Virus record (IMG/VR): IMGVR_UViG_3300023215_003041
Reading direction: 5' to 3' (one strand)
Source: a virus
DNA length: 64,000 nt
The notes beneath the pieces are model-generated. The model worked only from the letters and a program-made list of their open reading frames with translations, was not told the origin of the DNA and made no database searches. Both the position numbers and the translations under genes were made by a program. Each line of letters starts with the position of its first letter. The first letter of the stretch is position 1. Of the stretch, positions 3,646 to 19,567 are shown piece by piece.

Positions 3646-4761
3646 TTACATTAAAACTTCACGGTGACCATATGAGTTTAGGGCGCTAACTACACCTTCA
3701 TGCTCTAAAGCCTCTACTAACCTTGCTGCACGGCTGTAACCGATACGAAACTTACGTTGAAGGGTGGATACGTTGGCCTTACGCGTTTCAATTACAAAGG
3801 CTTTTGCTTCTTCGTAAAAAACGTCTTCGGGTTCGGGTTCGGGGTCGCAGGGTAGTTTAATTTCATGAGATAGCACTTCATCATCATCTAAATGAAAGGC
3901 TTCTTTTAGGCTCAGCGCTAAGGATAGAAGCCCATTAGCTCCGAGAAATATTTCTGACTCGAGACGGGCTTCCTGTTGGTCCTTAGGGATATCAGCGCTT
4001 TCTTCAATCAAGCGGTCAGAATACTTAATACGCTTAACCGAGCCATCTTCAACAAGCACCGCGGTTAACTGTTCGTCATAACTAACAGCAAGTTTCTGAA
4101 CGAGCTTGCCTGAGTCTAAACACAATTGAATTTCTTCTGAGTTTAGTTCCTGGTTCTTGGCTCTGATAACCGCCTTGGTTTCATCTGTGGCTTGAAGCTC
4201 AGTTTCTTCGAGTAATTCAAATTGGGTCGGGTGTCCATTCACAAGCCAGCTTGTTAGGTCTGAGGCTAGAGAGCGTCTTGCGAATGGGACAATAGGTAAA
4301 CTGCCTAAGGCTTTACGCAGCACGGCAAGAAAGATTTCAGCTTCACCATCACTCGACGCGTTTACGATTATTAGCTTGTGGCTCGGGATAATTGTTCCCA
4401 TTGTTGCAGTCTGGTCGGTAAAGGCTCGAGGTAAGAGCTGCGAGACAACTTGTTCTTTTAGGTCTGCCCGAGCTTTCTTACCTAACGGTGCGCCGGTTTC
4501 AGCTTCAAGTATCTTGGCACGGACTTCTACTTCACGGGCCACAACCCGCGCTGGGATTATCTTACTTTCTTTAAGTAGCTTGACCGTATAGAAGCCATTA
4601 ACCTCGTGGACCAACAACGAACCAATAACGGGAGAGAAACCTAAGGTCGCCATCGTGTGATCACCGCAAGGGTGGAAAGGGATATTTTCTAGGGCCTGGG
4701 TTAAGCCTGAGAAATCTACGTGCTTGGTTAGTAAATAAAATTTTGCGTTTTTAAAATACAT
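3646..4761 (-). CDS. rdgC: recombination-associated protein RdgC with C-terminal FtsK-gamma-like winged helix
   Basis: RdgC-type N-terminus (YFKNAKFY, FHPCG, TLGF, KIIPARVV, QLLPRAF, VQKLA); C-terminal YEEAKAFVIETRKANVSTLQRKFRIGYSRAARLVEALE resembles FtsK gamma; leader before ATG 4761. Confidence 0.9.
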   Translation of the reverse strand: MYFKNAKFYLLTKHVDFSGLTQALENIPFHPCGDHTMATLGFSPVIGSLLVHEVNGFYTVKLLKESKIIPARVVAREVEVRAKILEAETGAPLGKKARADLKEQVVSQLLPRAFTDQTATMGTIIPSHKLIIVNASSDGEAEIFLAVLRKALGSLPIVPFARRSLASDLTSWLVNGHPTQFELLEETELQATDETKAVIRAKNQELNSEEIQLCLDSGKLVQKLAVSYDEQLTAVLVEDGSVKRIKYSDRLIEESADIPKDQQEARLESEIFLGANGLLSLALSLKEAFHLDDDEVLSHEIKLPCDPEPEPEDVFYEEAKAFVIETRKANVSTLQRKFRIGYSRAARLVEALEHEGVVSALNSYGHREVLM

Positions 4762-15887: not shown

Positions 15888-16220
15888 ATGGAGTATGCCA
15901 TGTTAAGAAGATACGATGAAACTATTGAGCTTGATTGGGAATTAGAACGCCGCCGAACTACAGCACGAAAATTTAAAAGTATGCGGCGACGTTACGCATT
16001 AACTCAAGAAGAACTCGCCCTTGCTGCTGACGTTCATAAAAATACTATTTCTAACGCCGAACGCTACGGTCGAATATCCCCCGAAGAATTCTATCGATAC
16101 CAACAAATCGCAAAGCAAGCACATAAGGATAAATCCGAGGGTGTCTTACTCAACAAAATTATCTTATCGGATATTTCCTTCGCCGATTTCAAGGAATTTC
16201 TCGCGACCTTCTTAGATTGA
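15888..16220 (+). CDS. XRE-family HTH transcriptional regulator
   Basis: MRRRYALTQEELALAADVHKNTISNAER; the only clear rightward gene in 1-37945. Confidence 0.8.
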   Translation: MEYAMLRRYDETIELDWELERRRTTARKFKSMRRRYALTQEELALAADVHKNTISNAERYGRISPEEFYRYQQIAKQAHKDKSEGVLLNKIILSDISFADFKEFLATFLD

Positions 16221-16222
16221 CC

Positions 16223-17068
16223 TTAATAGAGAACTGGTAACGTTGTTACCAGTTCATTTCTTTTCAGAAGTGGGACTTGGTTTTTGACCCAAACTTTGAT
16301 CTTCTCTAAACGTTCCGCTACCCGTGTTTTCTTATGCGCTACAACTTCGGATAGCGCCTGTTCAAGCGCCCAACCTTCACCCTCAGGACCGTAGAAACCC
16401 CAACAAGAATCATCGATATCTCCGGTGGCACTTTCGATAACATAACCATACACATTCCCCTCGAGAGCCGAGGCATAGGTTTCCACTTCCCCCTCAAGAT
16501 ACTTATAGCATTGCTGGATACGCTTTTCAGTGAGTCGCTTGAAGCCATATTCCTTACGGGCTTTTTCTTTACTGACATAGATAAAACCCACTTGGCCAGA
16601 GTCCCAGGCACAAGAGAAACCACCCGTATTCATCGTGATACCTGAATGGTCGTATAGGTAGAGGGGAAGCATCAGAAAGTACTTTTCCAATCGAGACTCG
16701 ATTTTAGCTTGTACTTGCTGGTTAAAATCGGCTAAGCCTTCGGCATTGCAACGGGTCTTAGGCCACTGGTTCTCAAAGCGTTCGAGAATTTCTTCAAAAC
16801 CAGGTTCGACTTCTTCAATCATCCCTATTTGATATTCCTGAGGGGTGATACTGGGTTGCTCATCCCCTAGATTATAGTTGCGGTGCCAGCAAACCATCGT
16901 GCCTACGTTATCCCACTCGCGGGGACTTTCATAGTGATCGTCTCGCTCTATCTTGATAACGATATCTTTGATGTGAGTCTCAGACTCACCAATAGTATCT
17001 AGGTTTGAGAAGGGGATATTTAAAGCTTTGCAGTGCTTTTCTAAAGCATTTTTCAGTTCAGTATTCAT
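16223..17068 (-). CDS. conserved hypothetical phage/MGE protein
   Basis: LPLYLYDHSGITM...WDSGQVGFIY...SCWGFYG; conserved leader. Confidence 0.75.
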   Translation of the reverse strand: MNTELKNALEKHCKALNIPFSNLDTIGESETHIKDIVIKIERDDHYESPREWDNVGTMVCWHRNYNLGDEQPSITPQEYQIGMIEEVEPGFEEILERFENQWPKTRCNAEGLADFNQQVQAKIESRLEKYFLMLPLYLYDHSGITMNTGGFSCAWDSGQVGFIYVSKEKARKEYGFKRLTEKRIQQCYKYLEGEVETYASALEGNVYGYVIESATGDIDDSCWGFYGPEGEGWALEQALSEVVAHKKTRVAERLEKIKVWVKNQVPLLKRNELVTTLPVLY

Positions 17069-17146
17069 CGTCGATTTCCAAATTGTAAGTTAATTACCGT
17101 GGTGGGGTATTCCCCACCAAGAAAATAGCCTAGTATTTATTCTCTC

Positions 17147-17359
17147 TTACTGTCCTTTGAAGGACTCATTAAGAAGATTCTCCCAGGTTAGGGTTAAGTT
17201 GTTTTGATAAAGAATTTTGTGTTGGATACCACTTTCAATTTCATAGCAAGCCGCACCGTTAATTGTGCCGACGGTTTTGCTTCGTCTAAAAGTAAGTCCT
17301 TGGTCTTTTGCCAGTTTACGGCACTCCTTTATAACTTCATTAGATGATAATTTTTGCAT
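17147..17359 (-). CDS. hypothetical protein (70 aa), separated from its SD by the insertion
   Basis: ATG 17359; the reconstructed empty site restores AAGGAAAATAAGATG. Confidence 0.65.
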   Translation of the reverse strand: MQKLSSNEVIKECRKLAKDQGLTFRRSKTVGTINGAACYEIESGIQHKILYQNNLTLTWENLLNESFKGQ

Positions 17360-17401
17360 CTTATTTTCGGGTATTCGGAAAAGAGTGTGTATTGACAAAA
17401 A

Positions 17402-17425
17402 TAGGCATTAGCTAAACTAATGCCT
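17402..17425 (-). terminator. hairpin downstream of aca2 (probable terminator)
   Basis: AGGCATTAG-CTAAA-CTAATGCCT followed on the minus strand by ATTTTT. Confidence 0.6.
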
Positions 17426-17432
17426 TGCTATA

Positions 17433-17792
17433 TCAAGATATAGTTTCCTCTTCACGCCACTTATCAGCCTCACTTTCGCAAAGCAAAGCGGTAGCCACTG
17501 ACTGAGCCAAGCGCCATTTTAATTCGTTCCCCGTACCGCCAGCGGTTTTATATTCATAAAATGAGTCAAAGTAGCAATAATTAGGATCGGCTTTATCAAA
17601 CTCTATTTGCAAGCGCTCTAAGCGAGTAAGGGCGAGCATTTGGATTACCCTAGAAACATCGTTTGGTATAGATCTATCACCCTTTTCCCATCGTTGCCAC
17701 GTTCTTGGCTCACACTCACCAATGAGTTGAGCTGCTTCACTCACTTCGAGGAACAATAAGCGTCTAAGCTGTTTTAGTTCGTTATTTGTCAT
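17433..17792 (-). CDS. aca2: anti-CRISPR-associated repressor Aca2 (HTH, DUF1870-like)
   Basis: MTNNELKQLRRLLFLEVSEAAQLIG...WQRWEKG...WRLAQSVA closely matches Aca2 as recalled; lies directly downstream of acrIF9. Confidence 0.88.
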   Translation of the reverse strand: MTNNELKQLRRLLFLEVSEAAQLIGECEPRTWQRWEKGDRSIPNDVSRVIQMLALTRLERLQIEFDKADPNYCYFDSFYEYKTAGGTGNELKWRLAQSVATALLCESEADKWREEETIS

Positions 17793-17835
17793 AATAAAAC
17801 TCCAAAATAAAAGGGGCTTATTAGCCCCAAGAAAA

Positions 17836-18042
17836 TTACTGGCAATCAACCCAGCGCTTGCCGTCCTCTTTATAAGCCAACCACAATCCATTTACTGTTT
17901 CTATACGCATTACAGTACCATGGAAACACTGATTTTTTGATGCAATACGCTTAGCTTGAGATAGTGAAGTTGTCTCGATTTGAGTGCCTTCACGTTCTGA
18001 ATTGATGTTTTGAACTTCTTTGATGATGTATGCAGTTTTCAT
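17836..18042 (-). CDS. acrIF9: type I-F anti-CRISPR protein AcrIF9 (68 aa)
   Basis: MKTAYIIKEVQNINSEREGTQIETTSLSQAKRIASKNQCFHGTVMRIETVNGLWLAYKEDGKRWVDCQ is near-identical to the Vibrio AcrIF9 sequence as recalled; acr-aca2 gene order. Confidence 0.9.
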   Translation of the reverse strand: MKTAYIIKEVQNINSEREGTQIETTSLSQAKRIASKNQCFHGTVMRIETVNGLWLAYKEDGKRWVDCQ

Positions 18043-18094
18043 ATGTATCTCACTTTCTTGAGTTGATTCGAACCAGTTCCGAACCGTTGAATAT

Positions 18095-18123
18095 ATTATG
18101 GTCGGATTCGCGACCGATTGCAA
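18095..18123 (-). promoter_or_regulatory. sigma70 promoter of acrIF9-aca2 with an inverted-repeat operator in the spacer
   Basis: TTGCAA-17 nt-CATAAT; spacer holds GGTCG-CGAATC-CGACC (18100-18115). Confidence 0.8.
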
Positions 18124-18248
18124 GTGTTAATTTGAAATTATTTTAACTTATCCGATACACACTCTTTTCCGAATACCCTTATTTTCCTTTTAAGTTAAAT
18201 TCTTTTCTAGCCGACGATCGTGGCCCGTGTTGGGGTGTTAGTTATTGA

Positions 18249-18695
18249 TTAATACTGAACTTCGATATCGTACTCATGAATATGAGCAACAGAACCGTCT
18301 GCAAATGTGATATTGATAGCGTCATTCTTGCCGCCCTCACTATCCTCCCAAACAATACCCTCCACCTTTACAACAGTTACATTATTACGAGTTGCAATGG
18401 CTTTGATTATGTCCTTATTCTTATCGCTCATTTCATGTGATAAGCCCGAAGCTAGAAAAGTATCGTTACCTTCATCTTTCTTAAAAGATACCGCTTGAGG
18501 CTGTTCACCCTCTGGGACCCCAGCGTATGAAAGAGCAATATCACTTAGTTCATCCAAATCCGTTTCAGAGTAAATTGCATTGTTAACTGCGTTAGATGCG
18601 GCTTTTTGTTCTTGCTCATCTGTATACACAAATTTATCAACGATTTGCTCAATAATGTCAGTAGTTACAGTGTTTCCGTTTACGATATTAGTCAT
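18249..18695 (-). CDS. acidic hypothetical protein (anti-defence candidate)
   Basis: 148 aa, D/E-rich; SD AAGGAAATC. Confidence 0.7.
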   Translation of the reverse strand: MTNIVNGNTVTTDIIEQIVDKFVYTDEQEQKAASNAVNNAIYSETDLDELSDIALSYAGVPEGEQPQAVSFKKDEGNDTFLASGLSHEMSDKNKDIIKAIATRNNVTVVKVEGIVWEDSEGGKNDAINITFADGSVAHIHEYDIEVQY

Positions 18696-18779
18696 TTTGA
18701 TTTCCTTTTTTTAAGTTAAATTCCTTTATGGCCAATTCACCGGCCATAAAGGCTATAATGTGTTACTCAGATAGTTTTA

Positions 18780-19133
18780 TCAATCCTGCGTTACTTCCTG
18801 CGTCGCCTCCCAAGCCTCAAGCACTCTCAGGCGCAGCGCTTCTGGTATCTCTATCTTACGACTACAGCTCGTGATATATGTAAGTGGAATCATATTTTCG
18901 GTAAATACGAATAGAGCGTTTTCTCCACGGCGGCGAGCCATAGCAGCACCAGCCATATCCTTCGGGGTATCGATAAATACCACCTCCGCATCGATATCCT
19001 TTAAGTGTGCTTTTAAAAACACCACCAAGCTAGGGTTCAGCAAACTTATGTAGGCTCGAACGCAATGAGGTTCGAACGTGTTATTGATTTTTCTTACAAT
19101 TGCTTTTTTGTCCTTGTCTGAAATATTCATCAC
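18780..19133 (-). CDS. hypothetical protein
   Basis: ORF coupled to the upstream gene. Confidence 0.65.
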   Translation of the reverse strand: MMNISDKDKKAIVRKINNTFEPHCVRAYISLLNPSLVVFLKAHLKDIDAEVVFIDTPKDMAGAAMARRRGENALFVFTENMIPLTYITSCSRKIEIPEALRLRVLEAWEATQEVTQD

Positions 19134-19567
19134 TCACCATCCCATGCCCAGTTACGTGCCTCGGGGCACACTTCTTCACGGGATACGGCATTGTCGGTGT
19201 AATTGCTAAACCATTCGGTCAGCGCATCTTCGTCCAGTTCGGCTAGCGCGTCCCAGTCATAGACTGTGGTGCTGTGGTGCTCCAAATAGTACCCGTGTTC
19301 GGCAATATACTCTTTACAGTGGTCAATCCATTCTTCCCAGTCTGAAATCCAGTCCATTTCTTCAAACCCTATACCCCAGCTACCTACGGGGTTCCCATCT
19401 ATACTGTGCAACGTGTCATTAAGCCCTTCAATGGGGGCGCCGGATTCAAGACTACCAATTACTTCTTTAAGTAATCTTACAATTTCCCAAGTGGCATTCT
19501 CGGTTGTATCAAAAGCCGCATCACCACTCTCGATATTTAATTCAAATTCTGCATTTGCTATTCGCAT
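19130..19567 (-). CDS. acidic hypothetical protein
   Basis: ATG 19567 after the leader; D/E/W-rich. Confidence 0.7.
   Translation of the reverse strand: MRIANAEFELNIESGDAAFDTTENATWEIVRLLKEVIGSLESGAPIEGLNDTLHSIDGNPVGSWGIGFEEMDWISDWEEWIDHCKEYIAEHGYYLEHHSTTVYDWDALAELDEDALTEWFSNYTDNAVSREEVCPEARNWAWDGE

Follow-up and report, generated by a model that had tools for sequence, protein, structure and literature searches.

A 64,000-nucleotide stretch of viral DNA (IMG/VR virus record IMGVR_UViG_3300023215_003041; the whole of this stretch is called the window below) carries the anti-CRISPR gene acrIF9 and the regulator gene aca2 within an 810-bp unit that is very probably a mobile insertion cassette (MIC) derived from an insertion sequence (IS) of the ISL3 family, bearing a complete acr operon and moved by an ISL3 transposase in trans. 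The anatomy of the unit, its presence and absence at one and the same site in phages, independent insertions of related units elsewhere and the kinship of its ends to those of ISL3 elements were all observed. Pairs of acr and aca genes turn up here and there on phages, plasmids and conjugative elements that are unrelated to one another, and their spread has mostly been ascribed to vaguely defined recombination; the unit described here is a concrete vehicle for an acr gene, and a natural phage population shows its site both before and after insertion.

The unit is bounded by a perfect 24-nt inverted repeat, the arms of which (17369-17392 and 18155-18178) are 100% complementary, and TTATTTTC can be read directly outside both arms (17361-17368 and 18179-18186); from outer repeat edge to outer repeat edge it measures 810 bp. 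The 24-mer end occurs at only two sites in the window when up to three mismatches are allowed, with 0 matches expected by chance (100 shuffles). An initial annotation, made from the sequence alone, had given the inverted repeats, their coordinates and the flanking 8-bp duplication correctly to the base. It had also described the interior as a promoter, acrIF9, aca2 and a terminator without a transposase, a description that agrees with the list of open reading frames (ORFs), with Pfam and PDB matches and with tblastn. The minus-strand acrIF9 and aca2 are the sole ORFs inside the 810 bp, the ORF list holds no transposase within the unit, and tblastn with three ISL3 transposase queries returned no ISL3 transposase match anywhere in the window. 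The features of the site are the following:

17361-17368, no strand: left copy of the target-site duplication, TTATTTTC, by direct reading; single copy in the empty allele (contig L132)
17369-17392, plus strand: terminal inverted repeat on the terminator side, sharing 23/24 positions with the left end of L215, an ISL3 element
17403-17425, minus strand: hairpin and T run resembling an intrinsic terminator, 3' of aca2; conserved in the related units L002, L133 and L134
17433-17792, minus strand: aca2, predicted to encode a helix-turn-helix (HTH) autorepressor of 119 aa (Pfam PF08965, 3.7e-16; PDB Aca2 7ezy, 7e-19)
17813-17828, minus strand: GC-rich hairpin and T run between acrIF9 and aca2, predicted to be terminator-like
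17836-18042, minus strand: acrIF9, 68 aa (PDB 6vqv AcrF9, E 7e-41, 65/68 identical)
18065-18085, minus strand: imperfect 5'-leader palindrome that may be a second Aca2 site, by direct reading
18095-18123, minus strand: sigma-70-like promoter (-35 TTGCAA, 17-nt spacer, -10 CATAAT), conserved in L002, L133 and L134
18100-18115, minus strand: palindrome in the promoter spacer, GGTCGC-N4-(G/C)CGACC, likely the Aca2 operator, by direct reading
18155-18178, minus strand: terminal inverted repeat on the promoter side, pairing with 17369-17392
18179-18186, no strand: right copy of the target-site duplication, TTATTTTC; a skip of 818 nt restores the empty site
17147-17359, minus strand: 70-aa phage gene downstream of the insertion, which lies between its Shine-Dalgarno sequence and its ATG

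Both the filled and the empty allele of this site exist in nature, and the difference between them is exactly the element plus one copy of the 8-mer. On a 60-kb ENA metagenome contig (L132), a 148-aa gene and the 70-aa gene are adjacent, the junction reading ...AAAAG-GAAAATAA-GATG... with one GAAAATAA; in the same orientation, the window reads ...AAAAG-GAAAATAA-(810 bp)-GAAAATAA-GATG.... Public runs were compared over positions 16200-19200 of the window. One contig of run X12, a 2015 marine metagenome, skips exactly 818 nt (17359 to 18178), and the filled allele crosses both junctions in contigs of runs X3 (~620-fold word depth), X7 and X8, which belong to separate studies. The identical filled allele is also found on the assembled contigs L128-L131; the 1-kb contig L131 has mutually reverse-complementary flanks, which were taken as an assembly artefact at the inverted repeats. 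The insertion separates the Shine-Dalgarno sequence of the 70-aa gene from its ATG and turns AAGGA into ACCCGA, such that the filled allele reads ...ACCC-GAAAATAA-GATG just before the start codon; on two filled contigs the 70-aa gene was passed over by gene callers. Comparison of the X3 contig with the window shows 15 differences in the flanks and a perfect match over the 818 bp of element and duplication. Perhaps the element is more recent than the divergence of these phage lineages; recombination could also have carried it from one to another.

The phage itself measures ~92 kb (longest contig, 91,745 bp), of which the window shows 64 kb, and the runs containing it are marine water and sediment metagenomes. 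Its 70-aa gene is present on many public contigs, and 21 similar places were not counted as empty, since their neighbouring genes are also those of filled contigs. The nearest IMG/VR relative (L118, 66% aa identity) was likewise rejected as an empty site; it has neither the cassette nor the flanking 148-aa and 70-aa genes. In the GenBank phage collection the element had no match and the flanks had trivial matches only, so that no sister phage was available there, and the 148-aa flank gene had no relatives among viral contigs.

Related units were found at different sites with different duplications (L135/L137/L138, L134, L002, L016 and L171), and further units with such ends or related ones carry other cargo:

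L135, L137 and L138 (4865-5672), Vibrio conjugative-element region (TraG, topoisomerase, ArdC, antirestriction): 808 bp, acrIF9-aca2, 87% identical over the full length; duplication GTTTTTAA
L134, Photobacterium leiognathi: 801 bp, acrIF9-aca2, ends decayed via small deletions; duplication ATATTTTC
L002, Mu-like provirus: 1471 bp, 127-aa ORF, aca2 homologue (74% aa) and 180-aa ORF; duplication AAAAATAC
L016 (3080-3834), provirus: 755 bp, 144-aa AcrIF11-like ORF and 68-aa HTH; duplication TTATATTT
L159 (4001-5642), Vibrionaceae chromosome: 1642 bp, ParE/Phd toxin-antitoxin and 231-aa ORF of the phage-integrase family, without transposase; duplication matching at 7/8 positions
L171, metagenome: 671 bp, no assigned cargo, without transposase; duplication GGAATTAG
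L199 (1077-1440) and L210 (from 3616), phage-like metagenome contig: ~364 bp, 62-aa ORF with two CxxC pairs, related ends; duplication CTAAATAG

Copies at different sites are mutually 83-89% identical. In the Vibrio conjugative-element copies, both ends share a G-to-A change at position 3 (23/24 against the window end), so that the two ends are identical to each other though the element has diverged by 13% from that of the window. Intact cassettes are present in the genomes GCA_004324495, GCA_029353215 and GCA_000736315. Alignment of L002 with the window is confined to ~150 bp at the promoter end, ~55 bp at the terminator end and aca2, which argues for a constant chassis with an exchangeable first gene. 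The 127-aa ORF of L002 (4934-5317, minus strand), in the acr position, had no match in Pfam, PHROGs, PDB or the ESM Atlas; together with the 180-aa ORF located after aca2 (4050-4592, minus strand), it is a candidate new anti-defence gene. The 144-aa ORF of L016 matches PDB 8dwq (2e-11), AcrIF11 6kyf (3e-4) and phrog_11282, its 68-aa HTH protein matches PDB 7xi5 (5e-12), and these genes lie behind a promoter with a palindrome of its own. The ParE/Phd cargo of L159 means that the ends are not confined to acr genes. Only vestigial ends remain in copies from an Aliivibrio prophage and from P2-like and lambdoid prophages. A 15-mer scan of viral contigs gave mostly unrelated recurring sequences, the relevant ones being only L002, L016 and L067.

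Wherever an element with this end motif was found to encode a transposase, the enzyme was of the ISL3 family (L067, L155, L160, L161, L163, L164 and L215). L215 (2864-5062, 2199 bp) is an autonomous ISL3 element in a temperate-phage-like immunity region on a JGI metagenome contig; its left end matches the window repeat at 23/24 positions, the sole mismatch being the last base, and its duplication is AAGTTAAG. The 437-aa transposase contains DDE_Tnp_ISL3 (6e-57), Zn_ribbon_ISL3 and HTH_Tnp_ISL3 domains, and the passenger is an N6/N4 DNA methylase. A sub-terminal copy of the right-end sequence of L215 was seen just within its left end (~2923-2945). The end motif GGGTAT.CGG...AGTG.GTA. is common to five further elements, each with a perfect 8-bp duplication:

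L160, Vibrio anguillarum plasmid p292: ISL3 element with a passenger ORF, transposase 70.6% identical to that of L215, ends 19-20/24; duplication TATTTAAT
L161, Vibrio cyclitrophicus plasmid: ISL3 element; duplication GTTATAGG
L164, another Vibrionaceae chromosome: ISL3 element; duplication GTCTATTT
L155, Shewanella inventionis: ISL3 element; duplication ATTTTTTG
L067, high-GC provirus: ISL3 element with a Bro-N passenger; duplication GGAAATAC

The cassette ends agree with those of L160, L155 and L067 at 19-20/24 positions and, as in L215, these ends flank genes matching PF01610; across eleven duplications the A+T content is 82%. Members of the ISL3 family (ISfinder) have 15-39-bp ends starting with GG and 8-bp duplications, the ends of ISPpu12 being 24 bp long. 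The left end of an autonomous element departs from its own right end at 3 to 9 of 24 positions, and this transposase group therefore tolerates more than the gap between the cassette and the left end of L215 (1/24). The cassette has a left-type end on both sides, which a simple internal deletion within an ISL3 element of this kind would not produce. Another ISL3 element, with an end matching the cassette at 21/24 positions, was seen at at least 16 sites with different flanks (L172-L225; metagenomes Ga0079226, Ga0209487 and others); its transposase (L184) is ~39% identical to the Vibrio type, and the element appears to be a high-copy relative.

Taken together, the exact empty allele, the independent insertions with different duplications and the 23/24 end of L215 bear out the proposal of the initial annotation that acrIF9-aca2 sits on a unit that is non-autonomous and has inverted repeats and a target duplication as its borders. 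The families it offered as examples (IS1595, IS1 and IS6) have to be replaced by ISL3. The empty site that it suggested looking for in sister phages was found in L132 and in the X12 contig, as were repeat-bounded insertions with different duplications; for the autonomous partner that it anticipated, no transposase-encoding element with both ends identical to those of the cassette was found, L215 being the closest.

The preferred reading, an ISL3-derived cassette mobilized in trans, can be set out as a sequence of steps. The cassette's previous carrier and the phage DNA would coexist in a co-infected cell, in which the transposase of a resident ISL3 element, supplied in trans, would bind both cassette ends. 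The cassette would then insert into an AT-rich 8-bp target, duplicating it, in the leader of a small gene of the ~92-kb marine phage. Once inserted, it would use its own promoter to express AcrIF9 early in infection, type I-F Csy complexes would be blocked, and Aca2 would afterwards repress the cassette promoter via the spacer palindrome. We infer this source of the transposase, mobilization in trans and a cassette that is mobile today; the host of the phage is presumably a Vibrio. A transposase-less, IS-derived cassette of this kind would deliver a ready-to-run, self-limiting anti-CRISPR operon in a single step.

Several observations weigh against this reading. No transposase-encoding element with both ends identical to those of the cassette was found; a 21-mer of the end had 0 matches in a set of one genome per species, and the end occurs within three mismatches in only 2 of 401 Vibrionaceae genomes (L156/L158 and L159), in neither case beside a transposase. 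The nearest transposase-encoding relative, L215, is known from a metagenome, and five positions of its right end deviate from the cassette end. Acceptance of a left-type/left-type pair of ends by an ISL3 transposase is putative. For the window phage, neither a host nor a type I-F system was identified. Finally, acrIF9-aca2 occurs without recognizable ends on Photobacterium damselae plasmids and on small RepC plasmids, which means either that the operon has further ways of spreading or that the ends are lost over time. As to the searches themselves, a first end-pattern scan of metagenome contigs gave 0 matches and a looser 19-mer succeeded. One Vibrionaceae genome has a solo end (22/24; L158:4001-4024) next to umuDC; two small ORFs come after it, and no second end was found within 8 kb.

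Of the alternatives, an immobile fossil survives best and is still unlikely. In this view the unit derives from ISL3 and was mobile in the past, but today it would be passed on only along with its carrier or through homologous recombination among related phages, and the polymorphism would reflect an old insertion followed by recombination or loss. The decayed ends of the Aliivibrio, P. leiognathi, P2-like and lambdoid prophage copies fit such a history, as does the failure to find a cognate transposase in Vibrionaceae reference genomes; the 83-89% identity between copies at different sites means that those transpositions are old. Set against this, the window ends are a perfect 24/24 pair, and the 87%-identical Vibrio copy keeps 23/24 with mutually identical ends, which argues that selection maintains them; natural phage populations contain the filled as well as the empty allele, and the flank differences of the X3 contig stop at the element. 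A cassette moved by another family that duplicates 8 bp (IS1595, IS1 or IS6), or by a phage-encoded recombinase or homing enzyme, is much less probable still: an 8-bp duplication by itself is not diagnostic of a family, and the window covers 64 kb of the phage, but all transposases found with the end motif are of ISL3 type, no IS1595, IS1 or IS6 element was seen with these ends, and insertions in carriers as unrelated as a phage, Mu-like and other proviruses, a conjugative element and a chromosome make a carrier-encoded enzyme unlikely. Promoters of acr-aca operons are palindrome-rich, yet the notion that repeats and 8-mers belong to the acr locus as palindromes of regulatory or chance origin can be set aside, being refuted by the exact empty site and opposed by the site-specific duplications, the ISL3 end match and the expectation of zero chance matches.

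If the preferred reading of an ISL3-derived cassette holds, it has known counterparts. MICs derived from IS231 are known in the Bacillus cereus group. A MIC is a transposase-less unit of passenger genes that is bounded by IS ends and can be activated by the cognate transposase (PMC3129680), and MICs of the Tn3 type in Xanthomonas carry TALE effectors (PMC4337579). Like these, the cassette combines IS-type inverted repeats, a target duplication and the lack of a transposase with passengers unrelated to transposition; unlike known MICs, it has an ISL3 parent, a putatively self-regulated anti-CRISPR operon as cargo and a phage carrier with filled and empty alleles. The MIC concept is thereby extended to the ISL3 family and to phage genomes. 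In the open full-text literature, with subscription-only papers outside the scope, we found neither an acr-carrying MIC nor an anti-CRISPR linked to such cassettes. MITEs, short for miniature inverted-repeat transposable elements, resemble the cassette in being non-autonomous, in having inverted repeats and a duplication, and often in consisting of two copies of one IS end, whereas they are non-coding and usually <300 bp; the cassette has two genes with their own promoter and terminator.

Within the ISL3 family, ISPpu12 carries passenger genes (PMC4133298), and some of the related ISL3 records are annotated as ISPpu12 family. 'Transporter' IS of the ISPpu12 type share with the cassette 24-nt ends starting GGGTAT.CGG and AT-rich 8-bp duplications, and passengers are habitual in the ISL3 group, as shown by the Bro-N ORF of L067, the methylase of L215 and the ORF of L160. 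The cassette differs from the ISPpu12 type in having no transposase and in the left-type identity of both its ends, and the inner end half AAAAGAGTGTGTA marks a subgroup, distinct from the ISPpu12 type, that has so far appeared in marine and Vibrionaceae-related DNA.

A broader possibility, to which we give slightly less than an even chance, is that cassettes with ISL3 ends form a dedicated anti-defence shuttle. Its constant chassis would combine the ends with a terminator and a promoter under Aca control, with an exchangeable first gene (AcrIF9, AcrIF11-like or the 127-aa ORF), and resident ISL3 transposases would move such cassettes among lytic phages, prophages, conjugative elements and plasmids of marine Vibrionaceae. 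If true, this would explain the same acr-aca module in unrelated mobile elements, with the ends serving as a search handle for anti-defence genes. The same ends do bracket other cargo, and searching for them is therefore a practical route to new anti-defence genes, the 127-aa ORF of L002 being the immediate candidate.

The cargo closely resembles known proteins. AcrIF9 of the window has three substitutions relative to 6vqv_A and shares a 90% cluster with proteins from P. damselae, Vibrio parahaemolyticus, Vibrio cholerae and Vibrio fortis, and the product of aca2 belongs to the Aca2/YdiL-like HTH family (PF08965, 59.8 bits against a cut-off of 23.8; PDB Aca2 chains, 7e-19 to 6.5e-18). Autorepression has reportedly been established for other Aca2 proteins (work on ZF40), and Aca2 would control the operon of the window in the same manner. 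The AcrIF9 family is an established inhibitor of type I-F systems, and AcrIF9 serves as a positive control for such inhibition (PMC7648647); the variant of the window is presumably an I-F inhibitor as well. The acrIF9-aca2 operons of Vibrio and Photobacterium (AcrIF9 6vqv, 7c78 and 6w1x; Aca2 7ezy and 7b5j) have the same gene pair, gene order and promoter with a putative palindromic operator, and their AcrIF9 is 96% identical. The operon lies between intact transposon ends in the window and in the Vibrio conjugative element, whereas homology to the P. damselae plasmids does not reach beyond the promoter on one side and the aca2 stop codon on the other.

The palindrome at 18100-18115 is likely the Aca2 operator, as predicted from its sequence and position. 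Its form GGTCGC-N4-GCGACC has perfect arms at the same promoter position in L133, L134 and L002, and one arm base is mismatched in the copy of the window. A seed-based repeat finder did not detect the promoter palindrome, and the RNA hairpin of the 5' leader (18065-18085) was no better than shuffled sequences (z -1.26); the operator assignment consequently rests on reading of the alignment. The hairpin at 17813-17828, between acrIF9 and aca2, might attenuate read-through into aca2. The insertion site, for its part, lies within a leader sequence that is repeated 5' of neighbouring phage genes (18188-18212 and 18709-18733, an 88% direct repeat), and the inner flank of the element's promoter end (18134-18150) is 82% complementary to that repeated leader.
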